A stretch of DNA of 64,000 nucleotides, taken from assembly GCA_017941235.1 (NCBI GenBank), contig JAGAWU010000049.1, forward strand, positions 2,497 to 66,496, given 5' to 3'. The first letter of the stretch is position 1. Every line of letters starts with the position of its first letter. A program made the translations under genes and the position numbers. Under the pieces are notes generated by a model, which did not search any database, had not been told where the DNA came from, and was given only the letters and a program-made list of their open reading frames with translations. Below are positions 35,570-61,871 of the stretch, piece by piece. Source of the DNA: Bacilli bacterium (GTDB lineage: Bacteria; Bacillota_I; Bacilli_A; RF39; UBA660).

Positions 35570-36337
35570 ATGCAAGAGTTATACACGTTAATTAATCAAT
35601 TAGGTATTTCAAAAGTTAGATTAGCAAAATATTTAGGAGTTTCACGTCAAATGCTTTATAATTATTTAGCACTTCCAAGTGTTGATGAATGGCCTAAGGA
35701 AAAGGCTGCTAAGCTTTTTGCACTATTAAAAATTGAAGATAGTAAAGAAATTAAAGATATTAAAGTAGATGGAACTTATATTATTGCTGTTGAAAATAGA
35801 TTATCTAATAATACTAAAGAGTCTTCTAGTCGTGAATTATCTGCAGATTTAAAGGGCTTTAACAAAAAAGAACAAGAAGTTTTAGCTGATATTATCAATT
35901 TATTAAAAGAAAAATTACAAGATGATAAAACAAAGGAAACATATTTTAGTTATGTATATTTATATCATTTTTTACAATCGATGGATGCTGCAGGTGAACT
36001 TAAATATATGCTTGCATATATGTCTAAATCATTAGGATTTACTAATCCTCAAGAATTTGTTTTTGATAAAGATAAACAGTTTGTTTTTGAAAGTATTATG
36101 TTCTCTGCTATGACACTTTATAGTGGGGGAGGATCTTCTAAGACTAAATTAGCTGAAGCTCATAAGAGATTCGTAGAGGATATTGAACATAAGAAAGAAG
36201 AAAAACTATCTAGAACACAAGAATTAAATACAGCTAAAATTCAAGCTTTAAAAGAACTTGGATATAGTGAAATTAATGAAAAGAATGCTAAAGAAGTTTT
36301 AGAAAAGATTGCTGAAATTCAATCTAGAAAAGTTTAA
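35570..36337 (+). CDS. Helix-turn-helix DNA-binding protein, family unknown (255 aa)
   Basis: N-terminal ...GISKVRLAKYLGVSRQMLYNYL... HTH. The rest is helical and charged. GGAGGG SD. Confidence 0.65.
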   Translation: MQELYTLINQLGISKVRLAKYLGVSRQMLYNYLALPSVDEWPKEKAAKLFALLKIEDSKEIKDIKVDGTYIIAVENRLSNNTKESSSRELSADLKGFNKKEQEVLADIINLLKEKLQDDKTKETYFSYVYLYHFLQSMDAAGELKYMLAYMSKSLGFTNPQEFVFDKDKQFVFESIMFSAMTLYSGGGSSKTKLAEAHKRFVEDIEHKKEEKLSRTQELNTAKIQALKELGYSEINEKNAKEVLEKIAEIQSRKV

Positions 36338-36350
36338 ATTTAGTAATTAT

Positions 36351-36378
36351 AAAGAAGGGGAGTTTTCCCTTCTTTTTA
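36351..36378 (+). terminator. Intrinsic terminator of the HTH gene
   Basis: AGAAGGG (36353-36359) / CCCTTCT (36367-36373) followed by TTTT. Confidence 0.75.
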
Positions 36379-36821
36379 TTATAATATAATATATTATATG
36401 ATTATTTAAATAATAAAATTTATAGTTGTAAATACTAGGACTAAGTGACTAAGTTTTTTTAATTGTATAAGTATATAAATTATAGAAATTAATTTAAATT
36501 AATGAATACTTATTTAATAAATTGATAATTCAATTTTATTGATTTATTTATACTTATTTATATTATATTTATTAGGTATAGATAGTAGTAGAATAGTTTA
36601 TATATATTACTTATATATTATATAATTAATTTATAGAAGTTAACATAATATCAATTATAGGAAATTATATATATGAATAAGTAATTAGGATTTATACTAT
36701 TAATACTTGTATTATTGCTAGTTTTTTTATTTCTAATTTATTAGTATTATTTATATTATATTGTTATACTTTTATTGTTTATTTAATTATGAATATTACT
36801 ATGATCTATTATTTATATGAT

Positions 36822-37250
36822 TAATTTTAAGCGTTCGAATTTATGTTTGGTTATTAATTATCTATCTCAAATTATATATAGTTAAATTTAAAGAATCAAC
36901 TATTCATTTTATGTATGATTCTTTATCTTAAATTGAAGTTAAATTTAAGCAGTTGAAATACTTTTTACTTATTAGTTCATCAGTTCAAATTTAAAGATTA
37001 ATTTTAAGCAATCGAGAATCACTTTTATATACAGTTCATCACCTCAATTTTACTATTTAATTTTACTACTTAATTTTAAAGAATTTAGATTTAGTTTTAT
37101 TGGTGGTTCTTAAGCTCAAATTCGTGTTTATTTTAACAAATCGATTAATTGTATTAAATACCAGTTTTCAACTTAAATTATGGCTTAATTTTGAGCAATC
37201 GAGTTTCTTTTTTATATATGATTGTTTATCTTGATTTAAATTACATATTC
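36822..37250 (+). repeat. Tandem array of 7 diverged units of 54-72 nt (unit starts 36822, 36883, 36940, 36999, 37071, 37132, 37186)
   Basis: Each unit starts with a TTAAWTTTAAGCAATCGA-like sequence, has a CTTTTATATATGATTC-like interior, and ends with a CTCAAATT-like sequence. More decayed copies seem to extend back to about 36490. There is no ORF on either strand. Confidence 0.8.
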
Positions 37251-37281
37251 ATTATATATAATAGATAATATTATTATATAT

Positions 37282-37310
37282 AAAAAAGAGGGTATTACTA
37301 CTCTCTTTTT
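37282..37310. terminator. Bidirectional intrinsic terminator (serves deoB on the - strand)
   Basis: AGAGGGTA (37287-37294) / TACTCTCT (37299-37306), 8 bp with one G-U, flanked by an A5 run and a T4 run. Confidence 0.65.
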
Positions 37311-37319
37311 AAATCTACG

Positions 37320-37343
37320 GTAGGGGACTTCCCCTACTTTTTT
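37320..37343 (+). terminator. + strand-specific intrinsic terminator with no upstream + strand ORF
   Basis: GTAGGGG (37320-37326) / CCCCTAC (37331-37337) followed by T6 on the + strand only. Confidence 0.65.
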
Positions 37344-38513
37344 CTATTCTAATTCTTCTAATATACTTAATCCGATTTCAGTTTTTGATAGTTCAAAATT
37401 GTCAGCGATTGTAGCTCCGATTGAACCTAATGAACTTAGTTGCGATAATTTTCTTGGTTTTACAAATTTATTACTATAGAATATGACTGGTACATTTTCT
37501 CTAGTATGATAATTACCAGGGTATGTTGGATCATTACCATGATCAGCAGTTATAATTAATAAATCATCTAGTTCTAATTTGTTTAGAATTATAGGTATTT
37601 CAACATCTAATTCTTCTAAGGCTCTTTTATATCCTTCTACATCTCTATTATGACCATATATTGAATCAAAGTCATCTAAGTTAACCATACATATACCAGT
37701 AAATTTTTTATCCATTATAGTTAATAATTTATTTACTGCTTCTTGATTATTTGATACTTTAATAGTTTTATTTACTACTTTTTCATCAAATATGTCACTT
37801 ATCTTCCCTATTCCTATTACATTATATTTATTTTCATTTAATTCATTTAAAAGGGTTCTTTCTGTTACTTTTATACTATAATCTTTTCTAGCAGATGAAA
37901 TTAATCTATAATGACCTGTTTTACCTGTAAATGGTCTTGCAATAATTCTTGCTACTTTATATTCATCTCTTAAAGTTAATTCCCTAATCTTTTCACAATA
38001 TGTATATAGTGTTGATATTGGTATTACATCTTCATGTGCTGCTATTTGTATATCTGAATCAGCTGAAGTATATACTATTAGTGATCCATAGCTTTTTTCT
38101 AAGTCTCCTAATTCATTTATTATTTCATTACTACTTCCTGCTATTTTGTTACCAATAACTTTTCTTCCTGTAATTTTTTCTATATCATTAAGTAATTCAT
38201 TAGGGAAACCTTCATTAAATGTTTTAAAAACAGCTTCTGATGAAACACCCATTATTTCATAGTGACCGTTTAAACTGTCTTTTCCTATGTTTGTAGGACG
38301 CGCTATTGTATAATATGCATCAACATCTTTGTTTTCATCCATATTTATTGTATTTAATAAACCTATTTTTGCTAAATTTGGAATAAATAAATCTGTTTTT
38401 TCTACTATATGACCTAGAGTGTTAGCTCCTTTAGAATCATATTTTATACTATCTTCTGCTTCCCCTACTCCTAATGAATCTAGAATCATTAAGAAAACTC
38501 TTTTAAACTTCAT
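37344..38513 (-). CDS. deoB: Phosphopentomutase
   Basis: N-terminal KRVFLMILDSLGVGEAED, and ...ITADHGNDPT... near the C-terminus. Confidence 0.9.
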   Translation of the reverse strand: MKFKRVFLMILDSLGVGEAEDSIKYDSKGANTLGHIVEKTDLFIPNLAKIGLLNTINMDENKDVDAYYTIARPTNIGKDSLNGHYEIMGVSSEAVFKTFNEGFPNELLNDIEKITGRKVIGNKIAGSSNEIINELGDLEKSYGSLIVYTSADSDIQIAAHEDVIPISTLYTYCEKIRELTLRDEYKVARIIARPFTGKTGHYRLISSARKDYSIKVTERTLLNELNENKYNVIGIGKISDIFDEKVVNKTIKVSNNQEAVNKLLTIMDKKFTGICMVNLDDFDSIYGHNRDVEGYKRALEELDVEIPIILNKLELDDLLIITADHGNDPTYPGNYHTRENVPVIFYSNKFVKPRKLSQLSSLGSIGATIADNFELSKTEIGLSILEELE

Positions 38514-38515
38514 AA

Positions 38516-39418
38516 TTACACTCCTTTTTTGTTACGTGGATGATATTCTTTATAATCACTATTAAGTTTATTATCACTTACGTGAGTATAAATTCTTGTT
38601 GTTGATATATCTGAATGACCAAGCATTTCTTGAATACTTCTTAAATCGGCACCACTATTTAATAGATGTGTTGCGAATGAATGTCTTAATGTATGTGGTG
38701 ATACTTCTTCATCCAGTCCTTTTTCTTTCAATATAGCTTTTAAATTTTTAAAGAAACCTTGTCTTGTTATTTTTTTCCCATGATTATTTACAAATAAAGC
38801 ATCACAAACTTCTTTTTTTAATAAGCTGTTTCTTACATCCATATACATATTTAAATAATACATTGAATATTCACCTAATGGTATTATTCTTTCTTTGTTA
38901 CCTTTACCAACTATTCTTATAATACAATTAGTGAAATCTATATTATTTAATGTTAAATTAACTAGTTCAGAAACTCTTAAACCAGTCGCATAAATTAATT
39001 CTAACATAGCTTTGTTACGATAGTCAAATGGTGTCTTTAATGTTATGTCTAATAGTTTATCTACATCTTCTATAGATAATGTTTTTACTATTTGTTTTTT
39101 TAACTTTGGCCTTTTTATTCCTAAACTTACATTTTTATCTGTAATGTGTTCTTTTTCTAGAAAAGCGTGATAATTCTTAATCGCTGTTAGTTTTCTTGCT
39201 ACTGTAGATGTTTCATCACTATCATTTTCATATAAATATGCTAAATAATTTTCTATTGTTTCAGGTTTTATATCTTTAGGACTTGTAATACCTTTTGTAT
39301 CACAATATTCTTTATATTTATTTAAATCGTTTTTATATGATTCATAAGTGTTTTTACTTAATCCTTTATCAATCATACAAAAACTTAAGTATTCTTCAAT
39401 TGACTCTTTAAAACTCAT
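38516..39418 (-). CDS. xerD: Tyrosine recombinase XerD
   Basis: 300 aa. ...ATGLRVSEL..., HTLRHSFATHLL, LGHSDISTTRIYTH. The xerD-deoB neighbourhood matches B. subtilis ripX-drm. Confidence 0.85.
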   Translation of the reverse strand: MSFKESIEEYLSFCMIDKGLSKNTYESYKNDLNKYKEYCDTKGITSPKDIKPETIENYLAYLYENDSDETSTVARKLTAIKNYHAFLEKEHITDKNVSLGIKRPKLKKQIVKTLSIEDVDKLLDITLKTPFDYRNKAMLELIYATGLRVSELVNLTLNNIDFTNCIIRIVGKGNKERIIPLGEYSMYYLNMYMDVRNSLLKKEVCDALFVNNHGKKITRQGFFKNLKAILKEKGLDEEVSPHTLRHSFATHLLNSGADLRSIQEMLGHSDISTTRIYTHVSDNKLNSDYKEYHPRNKKGV

Positions 39419-59342: not shown

Positions 59343-61871
59343 TTATTTTAAGAAATCGTCTATTGTCATTAATCTACTATCAATATCATTTAAATCTACT
59401 TGTTCTTTTTTTGGAATTTCTTTCTTTTCTTCTTTTGTTTCACTTATATTTTTTTCTACTAGATTCTTAAATATAAATGCATCTGTTACATTATGTTTTG
59501 TTAATTCTTTACCTATCGAATATCTATCACTTATAGGAAGTTCAGTTAACTTGATATCAATAATTTTACTTGATTTTAATCCTAAATGTTCTTTAGAATC
59601 CTCTATAAATGCTTTTAATACTTTATGTGGATTAGATTTTACTTCTCTAATTACTAATAATCCTTTTCTTGTTCTTGTTGATAATTCAAATTCTGAAAGT
59701 TTAATTCTTTTACCTGTATTTTTATCTGTTATTATAGAAAGATATTCATCTGTGTTGTAATCAAAATTATTTACTGAGACTACTTCATCATCTTTTAAAT
59801 TTATAGCCTTAACACCACCAGCTTTTACTCCTGAAATTGGTATTTCTTCTGTTTTGAATGATAATCCAAATCCGTTTTTAGTTGTTACAAATACACAATC
59901 TTTTTCTTCTAAACAAACTTGTATTAATCTATCTTCTTCTTTTAATTTCATACAATTAATTGGTTTGCTCCAGCGACTTACTTCAAATTCTTTTAATATA
60001 GAACGTTTAATTAGACCATTTTTAGTTATAAATATAATTGGTCTTTCACTAGAAAAGTCATATGCTGGTATAGCTCCAATAATTTCTTCATCTTGAGCAG
60101 TTGGAACAATGTTACTGATATGTTTTCCCATATCTTTCCATTTTAAATCATATATTGCATGAACTGGTATATGTAGATAGTTACCAAATGATGTAAATAC
60201 TAGTAATGTATCTAATGTATTCATTTCATATTGTCCTATTATGTAATCGTTTTCTTTTAGTGTAGGACTATCCCCACTTGCTCCATAACTTCTCATACTT
60301 GTTCTTTTAATGTATCCGTCTTTAGTAATCATAACAATTACATCTTCTTTAGGAATCATTTCAGTTTGATCAATTTTAATTTCTCTTACTTCTTCTTTTA
60401 TTGTTGTAAGACGTGGAGTTTCAAATTCATCACGAACTGCACTAAGTTCTTTCTTCATTACATATTTTAATGCTTTTTCATCTTCTAATATTGCACTTAA
60501 GCCTTTAATTAGTTTATCTAATTTTTTCTTTTCTTCTTCTAGTGCTACTACATCTGTATTTGTTAATCTATAAAGTTGTAATACTACAATTGCTTCTGCT
60601 TGTTCTAAAGTAAAATCAAATTCTTTTACTAAATTATCTTTAGCATCCGATTTATTTTTAGATGCTCTAATTACTTTAATTACTTCATCAAGAATGGATA
60701 AACATTTAATTAATCCATCAACTATATGTAATCTTTTTCTTGCTTGATCTAAATCAAACATTGTTCTTCTTTTTACTACTTCTTTTTGATGATTTACAAA
60801 AGCTTCAAGTATTGGTTTTAAACCAAGTAATTTAGGCCTTCTATTTACTATAGTTACCATATTAAAGTTATAGCTTGATTGTAGATCAGTGTTTTTTAAT
60901 AAATAATTTAATATAAGTTCTTTATTTGCATCTTTCTTAAGGTCAATTGCTATTCTTACATCTTTTTCACTTTCATCTCTGACTTCAGCTATACCTTCTA
61001 TTTTTTTATCTATTCTTATATCATCTATTTTTTTGACTAAAAGTGCTTTGTTTATTTCATATGGTATTTCTGTAACGATTAGTGATGTTTTTCCGCCTTT
61101 TTCTTCAAATTCTGTTTTACTAGTTACAACTACTCTTCCTCGTCCTTTTGTGTAAGCATCTTTTATTCCATCGATTCCTTCAATAATTGCTCCTGTTGGA
61201 AAATCTGGGCCTTTTACAAAATTCATTAAATCATCTAATGTACATTCTGGATTATCAATTAAATGAATTGTTGCATTTATTATTTCTCCTAAATTATGAG
61301 GTGGTATATTTGTTGCATAACCAGCTGATATACCTGTAGCTCCATTTACGAGTAGTGCTGGAAAGCGTGTTGGAAGAACAGTAGGTTCAACTGTAGAATC
61401 ATCAAAGTTTGGTGAAAACTCAACTGTATCTTTATCAATATCCCTAATCATTTCGTTACTGATTTTAGAAAGTCTAGCTTCTGTATAACGATAAGCAGCT
61501 GGACTATCACCATCGATTGAACCATTATTACCATGCATATCAATATATGGAAGTCTTATTTTCCAATCTTGACTCATACGAACCATTGCATCATATATAG
61601 ATGTATCACCGTGTGGATGATAGTTACCTATGACATCTCCAACGGTTTTAGCACTTTTACGATAAGGTTTATCATATGTGTTGTGTTCTTTATACATTGA
61701 GTATAGTATACGTCTTTGAACTGGTTTTAAACCATCTCTAGCATCTGGGATAGCACGATCTTGTATTATATATTTAGAGTAACTTCCAAATCTTTCACCC
61801 ATTATATCTTCTAGAGTATAATCATATATTTTTTCAATTACTTCTTCAGTTTCAGTTTTCTTTCTTGGCAT
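59343..61871 (-). CDS. parC: DNA topoisomerase IV subunit A
   Basis: LEDIMGERFGSYSKYIIQDRAIPDARDGLKPVQRRILYSM is the ParC/GrlA-type N-terminus. It lies downstream of parE. Confidence 0.85.
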   Translation of the reverse strand: MPRKKTETEEVIEKIYDYTLEDIMGERFGSYSKYIIQDRAIPDARDGLKPVQRRILYSMYKEHNTYDKPYRKSAKTVGDVIGNYHPHGDTSIYDAMVRMSQDWKIRLPYIDMHGNNGSIDGDSPAAYRYTEARLSKISNEMIRDIDKDTVEFSPNFDDSTVEPTVLPTRFPALLVNGATGISAGYATNIPPHNLGEIINATIHLIDNPECTLDDLMNFVKGPDFPTGAIIEGIDGIKDAYTKGRGRVVVTSKTEFEEKGGKTSLIVTEIPYEINKALLVKKIDDIRIDKKIEGIAEVRDESEKDVRIAIDLKKDANKELILNYLLKNTDLQSSYNFNMVTIVNRRPKLLGLKPILEAFVNHQKEVVKRRTMFDLDQARKRLHIVDGLIKCLSILDEVIKVIRASKNKSDAKDNLVKEFDFTLEQAEAIVVLQLYRLTNTDVVALEEEKKKLDKLIKGLSAILEDEKALKYVMKKELSAVRDEFETPRLTTIKEEVREIKIDQTEMIPKEDVIVMITKDGYIKRTSMRSYGASGDSPTLKENDYIIGQYEMNTLDTLLVFTSFGNYLHIPVHAIYDLKWKDMGKHISNIVPTAQDEEIIGAIPAYDFSSERPIIFITKNGLIKRSILKEFEVSRWSKPINCMKLKEEDRLIQVCLEEKDCVFVTTKNGFGLSFKTEEIPISGVKAGGVKAINLKDDEVVSVNNFDYNTDEYLSIITDKNTGKRIKLSEFELSTRTRKGLLVIREVKSNPHKVLKAFIEDSKEHLGLKSSKIIDIKLTELPISDRYSIGKELTKHNVTDAFIFKNLVEKNISETKEEKKEIPKKEQVDLNDIDSRLMTIDDFLK

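Follow-up and report, generated by a model that had tools for sequence, protein, structure and literature searches.

Several bacteria organise late replication and segregation through sequence-specific sites concentrated around dif or the replication terminus, as exemplified by the MatP/matS system of enterobacteria, the XerD-specific SMC-unloading sites of Bacillus subtilis and the RTP/Ter system. The matS and XerD-specific sites are dispersed single sites, the latter being similar to the XerD half of dif. Polarity and an arrangement in opposed groups characterise Ter sites, and RTP and Tus are each encoded next to one of their sites. Tandemly reiterated sites are found in plasmid centromeres and iteron arrays such as sopC of the F plasmid, in which a 43-bp direct repeat is present 12 times, every copy including an inverted repeat of 16 bp to which SopB binds (PMC3177203). 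Here we analyse a locus that recalls both types of system, located in a 64,000-nucleotide stretch of the chromosome of an uncultured Bacilli bacterium (contig JAGAWU010000049.1; this whole stretch is hereafter the window), namely a tandem array of seven diverged units of about 58 nt (36821..37242, minus strand). The units are copies of an element, here termed E, that lies between a predicted dif site and the phosphopentomutase gene deoB.

Like sopC, the array is arranged head to tail, with units that are tens of bp long and combine an internal dyad and a conserved motif with otherwise variable sequence, and its copy number varies between relatives. It differs from sopC in being chromosomal and located at the terminus beside dif, in having half-sites 24 nt apart instead of a compact 16-bp palindrome, and in the far greater divergence of its units (about 61% identity), which have no sequence similarity to the plasmid repeats. 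As Pfam detected no ParA, ParB or Rep among the ten flanking genes scanned, we do not consider it a member of the sopC-type family. With the terminus-marking systems E shares a position near dif and the terminus, where those systems have their sequence-specific sites. Unlike the dispersed single matS and XerD-specific sites, E forms a tandem array, with units that do not resemble the XerD half of dif, and in contrast to the polar, opposed Ter sites it flips freely in orientation and lies on one side only.

The array and its setting at the replication terminus

At least seven head-to-tail units of about 58 nt had been described in a first-pass annotation of the window made from its letters and open reading frames (ORFs). 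A covariance model, run with filters off, returned exactly seven units, all on the minus strand (E-values of 1e-12 to 3e-6), and none elsewhere in the 64 kb. Their low-coordinate ends lie 1-4 nt from the unit starts originally given. Both the covariance model and the first nhmmer profile, which gave the same seven, include the window's own units; a profile built from other species only recovered five units with E-values below 1e-4 and a sixth at 0.13, with nothing else in the 64-kb window. Numbered w7 to w1 with rising plus-strand coordinates, the units are w7, nearest to dif (36821..36878, 56.3 bits), w6 (36882..36938), w5 (36939..36996, 56.6 bits), w4 (36998..37055), the best preserved, with 8/8 arm pairs and an exact 3' box ATTCTCGATTGCTTAAAATTAAT, w3 (37070..37127, 62 bits), w2 (37128..37184, 37 bits), the most diverged and the one missed by the other-species model, and w1 (37185..37242, 61 bits). 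The perfect 9-bp stem noted earlier at 36891-36899/36927-36935 is present (AAAGAATCA/TGATTCTTT) and is private to w6, its register differing from that of the stem conserved across species. Weaker copies had also been thought to continue leftward to about 36490, but left of 36821 no score exceeded those of matches inside coding DNA (E-value >1).

A repeat search resolved families of 4-5 copies with 60-71% identity and spacings of 57-72 nt, and of an 18-mer head motif, for which the expectation in the window is 0.6, the array contains five copies. When the units are aligned without gaps, anchored on their most conserved block and read on the minus strand (TCGATTGCTTAAAAT, the sense of deoB), their mean pairwise identity is 0.61, no higher than the 0.62 that they show to units of other species and above the 0.39 of random 58-mers drawn from the AT-rich gap around them, whose 99th percentile is 0.53. 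The ~58-nt period went unreported by Tandem Repeats Finder, the copies being too diverged for it. The one unit length of 72 nt results from a 13-nt duplication, AATTTTACTACTT, between w3 and w4 (37056..37068), which is present or absent among conspecific strains: across ten same-species contigs from other samples the array is invariant except for a few single-nucleotide polymorphisms (SNPs) and this 13-nt indel. The array and dif are separated by a very AT-rich spacer (36666..36820), which measures about 155-167 nt in the three large-array species. Public contigs of the window species and of the species of its relative L001 end inside or beside the array (L030-L032, L110, L116/L117), which suggests that the repeats hamper assembly.

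The array lies in a gap between two convergent genes, one coding for a protein with a helix-turn-helix (HTH) domain (stop at 36337) and the other being deoB (37344..38513, minus strand; stop at 37344). The first-pass annotation had called this gap free of ORFs of 60 aa or more and flanked by the terminators of the two genes, and both statements hold: an ORF scan of 36338-37343 returned none of that length, the sole ORF of at least 30 aa being a 44-aa TTG ORF at 37100-37234, and a terminator scan placed an intrinsic terminator of the HTH gene at 36351..36375 on the plus strand. The deoB side carries two hairpins with T-runs (37283..37338), which are terminator-like on both strands and separate the array from deoB. 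Up to 36.3 kb the large ORFs are nearly all on the plus strand and the GC skew is +0.2 to +0.4; beyond 37.3 kb most of them lie on the minus strand and the skew is negative, with the maximum of the cumulative GC skew falling within the gap. Given this switch in skew and gene orientation inside the gap, the presence of dif, and xerD as the second gene to its right (38516..39418, minus strand; TIGR02225 equivalog, 348 bits versus a cutoff of 329.6), the gap is the terminus of replication in an uncultured gut Bacilli lineage with a small AT-rich chromosome. The skew switch, the dif site and the nearby xerD had been overlooked in the first-pass annotation, as had the origin of the units by amplification of an element that most relatives carry once.

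The site in question, ATTTCCTATAA-TTGATA-TTATGTTAACT (XerC arm, centre and XerD arm; 36638..36665, minus strand), is 28 bp long with the 11-6-11 architecture. Compared with the experimentally defined references from B. subtilis and Escherichia coli (PMC3025954), it shares 23 of 28 positions with B. subtilis dif (ACTTCCTAGAATATATATTATGTAAACT), and its XerD arm agrees with that of E. coli (TTATGTTAAAT) in 10 of 11 positions and with that of B. subtilis likewise in 10 of 11. A position weight matrix (PWM) built from the sites of relatives finds it once in the 64-kb window, at 40.1 bits with a runner-up of 6.4 bits. Known dif sites are located at GC-skew shift points (PMC3025954), and this one coincides with the switch in skew and gene orientation as judged within 64 kb of chromosome. 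The 28-mer recurs, identical or with at most four mismatches, in 17 of the 24 relatives retrieved through DeoB, mostly 380-640 nt downstream of deoB (1.56 kb in L008), and, wherever it was found in the further loci (L104, L118, L120-L127), with at most one mismatch. We identify 36638-36665 as the predicted dif of XerCD, its cognate xerD being encoded in the genome. The gap thus resembles known chromosomal dif regions in its 11-6-11 site, the uniqueness of that site, the skew switch and the adjacent xerD, and differs from them in that dif covers only 28 bp of the 1-kb gap and the array units are not dif-like.

Several further observations concern dif itself. In eight of the loci (L010, L012-L015, L017, L024, L125) it is inverted relative to the same syntenic flanks, deoB and the HTH gene, with its distance to deoB still about 550-640 nt. 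The best non-dif match in the window to the centre plus XerD arm, TTGATATCAAGTTAACT at 59544-59560 on the minus strand, scores 16.5 bits against 26.5 bits for dif, and could be either an XerD-only site or a chance match. In one relative an element of about 5 kb (L016:7797-12868) is bounded by dif and a second dif-like site, and the same layout is seen in another (L011:7785-12883); in both, the second site keeps the centre and the XerD arm and has a diverged XerC arm. The L016 element codes for a RepB-type rolling-circle Rep (PF01719 and PF21861), a Zot-like ATPase (PF05707, phrog_197) together with a small HTH protein, and looks like an inovirus-like element integrated at dif (IMEX, a mobile element that exploits Xer for its integration) in a gut Bacilli genome. 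We read the dif site and the hybrid dif-like site around the L016 and L011 elements as the footprint of predicted Xer-mediated integration.

Conservation and anatomy of the element

Comparison of the corresponding loci identifies E as a conserved, single-locus, dyad-symmetric element of about 50 bp between deoB and dif in this family. The relatives are uncultured gut or rumen Bacilli labelled Erysipelotrichaceae, Tenericutes or Clostridium sp. CAG:417, whose near-complete scaffolds measure about 1.2 Mb, and at least 12 of them carry E between deoB and dif, with a copy number of 1, 2, 4, 6 or 7 depending on the species. L001/L110 (DeoB 88% identical) has four units in the same place and orientation, three of them with the exact 15-mer core. 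L104 has six nearly identical units with a very regular 58-nt period and, by eye, a degenerate seventh copy; two units each are found in L118, L120/121 and L126/127, and one each in L122/123, L124 and L125. Among more distant genomes single copies were recognised in L016, L018, L019 and L011, and weakly in L017 and L009. The first-pass annotation had asked whether the locus is conserved in close relatives with syntenic flanks, and E indeed occupies the same place in them, with variable copy number.

Outside this position E was not encountered. A scan covering the full 64 kb of the window and about 320 kb of related loci revealed no copy other than those at this position. A scan of 2.9 million viral contigs with the 15-mer core yielded no arrays and 53 single matches at chance level, and plasmid and phage collections gave zero matches. 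A metagenome scan with a two-core pattern returned 28 matches, two of which were true arrays (those of L104 and L110). More generally, the array matched no repeat, RNA or mobile-element family or collection among those searched, and no account of a dif-proximal dyad element of this kind came up in a text search of the literature.

To compare the gaps of relatives we used shared exact 11-mers, permissive blastn having given meaningless ~60% alignments everywhere in the AT-rich DNA. By this measure w4 has a 23-nt block in common with four species, and its exact 3' box is shared with 4 other species. We consider w4 to be the likely ortholog of the single-copy element, and interpret the seven-copy array as a lineage-specific tandem amplification of the conserved E whose copies have by now diverged.

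The element consists of a left arm resembling AATTGAGG, an interior of 24 nt and a right arm TCTCGATT, to which a 3' box, GCTTAAAAT, is added in the window clade. The arms are 24 nt apart in 23 of the 28 listed instances and 23-25 nt apart in the other five, whereas the spacing from unit to unit ranges from 57 to 135 nt. Dyad-symmetric ends had been proposed for the units from the start, and across 21 units from six species 82.7% of cells in the two 8-bp arms can pair, compared with 25-60% in controls with slid partner columns; the covariation score of the arms lies above all 500 shuffles. These covariation counts are inflated, the units being related by descent and hence not independent. Among the seven window units 18 columns are identical in all seven and nine more in six of seven, including G/C positions in a region of 19% GC, and the remaining columns are at chance level. 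The coexistence of saturated and invariant columns with a spacing free of indels argues for purifying selection acting on a motif of fixed geometry in most copies.

The arrangement of E relative to its surroundings is less uniform. All four combinations of E and dif orientation are present among the species, and E lies, depending on the species, on the XerC or the XerD side of dif. In distant relatives the interior of E is a strong palindrome, GATGGATAATTATCCATC, followed by a T-run, upstream of the small gene for a DUF1540 protein, such that the single-copy element there looks like an intrinsic terminator. In the window units the inner palindrome is gone, and an A-run stands where the relatives have the T-run.

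Candidate functions of the array

Based on these features we tentatively propose, at a confidence somewhat short of even, that the array is a reiterated double-stranded DNA platform for protein binding at the terminus, a function that we infer from its pattern of conservation. E would act as duplex DNA and as a candidate binding site for an oligomeric, sequence-specific protein, with its two half-sites about 32 bp, or roughly three helical turns, apart and on about the same face of the helix. Tandem copies would then constitute a multi-site platform beside dif, comparable to a plasmid centromere or iteron array or to a terminus-marking site, with the amplification having most likely occurred by slippage or unequal exchange in the AT-rich region. 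We favour contact of a protein with two half-sites on the duplex because of the fixed geometry and the sequence-saturated interior, and a symmetric DNA site because all four orientation combinations with dif occur. The first-pass annotation had left the choice between small structured RNAs, a protein-binding array and decayed repetitive extragenic palindromic (REP) or miniature inverted-repeat transposable element (MITE)-like units. The protein-binding alternative is the one we retain, in view of the fixed spacing, the position-specific constraint and the indifference to orientation; the small RNAs appear weak with respect to Rfam, promoters, folds and the two upstream terminators, and the REP or MITE alternative is disfavoured by the confinement to a single locus in about 320 kb of window plus relatives and by the lack of matches in the plasmid and phage collections.

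The most obvious candidate binder, by position only, is the XRE-type HTH protein encoded across dif from the array. This 255-aa protein (35570..36337, plus strand; gene convergent on dif) is conserved, and more so than DeoB across the clade, and is usually encoded right beside dif. Its N-terminal ~65 residues weakly resemble XRE/SinR-type HTH domains, with sub-threshold matches to HTH_7 and HTH_3 (E-value ~6e-4, below gathering), and it was assigned to no Pfam or NCBIfam family and has no sequence relative in the PDB. It is restricted to this lineage, with thousands of homologs at 70-95% identity, and forms 310 clusters at 50% identity in 1.8 billion representatives. A bolder proposal, which we regard as improbable, is that E and its arrays are the cis site of a previously unrecognised terminus-recognition system of Mollicutes-related gut Bacilli, in which the XRE protein would bind the half-sites and mark or anchor the dif region.

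Several observations weigh against a binding platform. Most species carry only one or two copies of E, so that the seven-copy array may add nothing. The AlphaFold2 model of the HTH protein has a predicted local distance difference test (pLDDT) score of 63, and Foldseek found nothing in the PDB with an E-value below 0.5; the position of its gene next to dif could be plain synteny, and the protein has no characterised relatives. The hairpin and T-run of E in distant relatives give it the appearance of a terminator, and the window units retain 5-8 of the 8 arm pairs, fewer than in other species, which would fit decay. Nor is the array poorer in within-species SNPs: it has 6 sites in 422 nt, and the remaining 584 nt of the gap have 9 positions with a SNP or an indel, small numbers in both cases. 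Furthermore, five of the eight arm pairs show double-sided changes, the column pair 10/44 is pairable in 21 of 21 units, as U-G, U-A or C-G, and G-T wobbles favour the unit-sense strand by 20 to 7; these features, counted over units that share descent, point to a folded single strand and away from a duplex read by its sequence.

The main rival of the binding platform, which we consider possible but rather unlikely, is that the array is a decaying relic, E being or having been an intrinsic terminator or insulator hairpin between dif and the neighbouring small gene which in this genus was duplicated by slippage or unequal exchange in the AT-rich terminus and whose extra copies are drifting with no function as an array. 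It is consistent with the single-copy E of L016, L017, L018, L019, L011 and L120a, which is a GC-containing hairpin of 9-11 bp (GAGATGGATAA/TTATCCATCT) followed by TTTTTAT and which in one example folds at -13.9 kcal/mol (z=-2.0). The range of copy number from 1 to 7 among species, the near-identity of the L104 copies, indicative of recent amplification, the loss of the inner palindrome and the weaker pairing in the window units, the shifting gene content between deoB and dif and the unreduced SNP density of the array all point in the same direction. However, none of the seven window units is terminator-like, the T-run having given way to an A-run, and the terminator scan found none between 36376 and 37318 and hence none in the array units. 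Likewise, the arms, the 24-nt spacing and the G/C-containing 3' box are kept in all or most copies while the other columns are saturated, which neutral AT-biased decay would not yield. Rho-independent terminators, which the distant single-copy E resembles, do not require conservation of sequence, arm spacing and a flanking box; in E it is the sequence of the hairpin, beyond its structure, that is kept between species with DeoB identities of only about 60-65%, which is unusual for terminators.

Another candidate reading is that the units fold as single strands, either as an array of small hairpin RNAs transcribed in the deoB sense (a processed precursor or decoys) or as DNA hairpins on the transiently single-stranded lagging-strand template at the terminus, which skew and gene orientation suggest to be the unit-sense strand for a fork arriving from the right. 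The arm helix with its five double-changed pairs, the covariation beyond the shuffles and slid controls, the three pair types at column 10/44 and the wobble asymmetry all accord with such folding. Against this, shared descent inflates the covariation counts, and the folds of single units are weak (-1.9 to -9.5 kcal/mol, z of -0.2 to -2.3). A cmsearch against Rfam, a check suggested in the first-pass annotation, gave no match in the window at the gathering score, and the best matches in 36300-37400 at E-values up to 10 were all far below it. Promoter-like sites number 12, compared with 13.1 in shuffles, and two terminators stand between deoB and the array. A fixed 24-nt "loop" of free sequence would be atypical of hairpin RNAs, and the orientation of E relative to deoB and dif flips, leaving no conserved direction of transcription or replication. 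Consequently, we regard single-strand folding as improbable.

The flipping of orientation also bears on any polar function at the terminus, whether as a Ter-like fork barrier, as a signal orienting FtsK or SpoIIIE in the manner of FtsK-orienting polar sequences (KOPS) or SpoIIIE recognition sequences (SRS), or as Xer accessory sequences comparable to those of cer and psi. The array does lie about 155 nt from dif on the side of the XerC arm, its seven units are co-oriented, pointing toward dif on the purine-rich leading strand, and the distance from array to dif is similar in three species. Yet E and dif each occur in both orientations across species, the side of dif on which E lies varies, and no mirrored array is present across dif. 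The PWM scan showed the units to be unlike dif or its half-sites, the skewed words of the window are purine-rich and match the general bias of coding strands, and the array-side strand of the gap lacks the known KOPS and SRS words looked for. We accordingly hold a polar role to be highly improbable. An origin from mobile DNA, as REP-, bacterial interspersed mosaic element (BIME)- or MITE-like palindromic units or as scars of dif-integrating IMEX, seems to us the least probable of all. With their imperfect palindromy, their length of about 50 bp and their extragenic 3' location the units recall REP/BIME, which are likewise imperfect palindromes, of ~40-50 bp, from 3' extragenic regions and capable of tandem clustering, and mobile elements do use dif in this clade, as in L016 and L011. 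In contrast to the tens to hundreds of dispersed copies of REP/BIME, often alternating when clustered, E is confined to one locus in the window and the ~320 kb of relatives, with its copies in the same direction and its position conserved across many species. The scans of viral contigs and of plasmid and phage collections speak against mobility too, the gap holds no pseudo-dif, and E lies across dif from the L016 element and is absent from it. No transposase was detected among the ten flanking proteins scanned by Pfam, a result obtained with no search directed at RAYT or insertion sequences.

A number of known identities were also considered and set aside. Several -35/-10 pairs can be read by eye in the units, none of which is conserved across them. 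The units are neither dif-like nor IMEX scars nor XerD-specific sites, the best full PWM score in the gap other than dif being -9.6 bits and no unit scoring as a half-site, and a pseudo-dif suspected by eye at the deoB end of the gap (37251-37278) scored -15.3 bits. The inner palindrome of the relatives, TTATCCAT, matches the DnaA box TTATCCACA at only 7 of 9 positions and is absent from the window units. By eye, no fit was seen to Fur, CodY, cre, Spo0A or CIRCE boxes or to the R'/R'' of integron attC sites, and the neighbouring recombinase is an XerD equivalog and not IntI. A CRISPR array is incompatible with the homology of the whole ~50-nt unit between copies, the copy identity of about 61% and the linkers of only 7-10 nt.

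Neighbouring genes and implications

The Pfam scan of the ten flanking genes identified YetF, SpoIIM, MnmA, the HTH protein, DeoB, XerD, MgsA, HolA, AlaS and a kinase; searches for tRNA and tmRNA were negative. The gene content of the interval between deoB and dif varies by species, comprising a DUF1540 gene, a toxin-like small ORF or none. The DUF1540 gene (PF07561), which is small, Cys-rich and antisense to deoB, is found between deoB and dif in L004, L005, L007, L010-L012, L014-L017, L019 and L125 (for example L016:7205-7420, minus strand); the window and its closest relatives lack it. A conserved long hairpin, GCACTCTCCTAT...ATAGGGGAAGTGC, precedes the gene and adjoins the single-copy E. 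In two other loci (L120:5200-5480 and L121:5370-5650) a hydrophobic ORF of about 30 aa (MVKKREYVCKVFLYITIILFLLLMIIVVIKK-like) with a strong ribosome-binding site lies between deoB and E, and faces a segment of about 110 nt which, read by eye, is bounded by a promoter and a terminator; judged in the same way, the pair resembles a type I toxin-antitoxin system. Just 3' of the deoB stop, a segment of the window (37246-37310, minus strand) that includes the second terminator and an AT-rich block, AAAAAGAGAGTAGTAATACCCTCTTTTTTATATATAATAATATTAT, has exact 11-mers in common with up to four species, and in many relatives the sequence downstream of deoB again contains GAGTAG and TAGGGGAAG-type motifs.

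The identification of the terminus and dif is routine biology, and it reframes the array. If the array is a decaying duplication of a terminator, the finding is an ordinary one. Whatever its function, the terminus and dif are now located to 28 bp in an uncultured lineage, and an orphan-looking array has been traced to a conserved single-copy element, with comparative data available for later tests. If the units are binding sites, they would represent a compact system for marking the terminus in bacteria without MatP, RTP or Tus, E providing a defined cis site of fixed geometry about 150-300 bp from dif, with natural copy-number variants from 1 to 7. Should the bolder proposal of a dedicated terminus-recognition system be true, E and its binder might be a functional analogue of MatP/matS or ZapT, with possible roles in chromosome segregation, division-site coordination or the handling of SMC, and the expansion in copy number would tune occupancy of the site.

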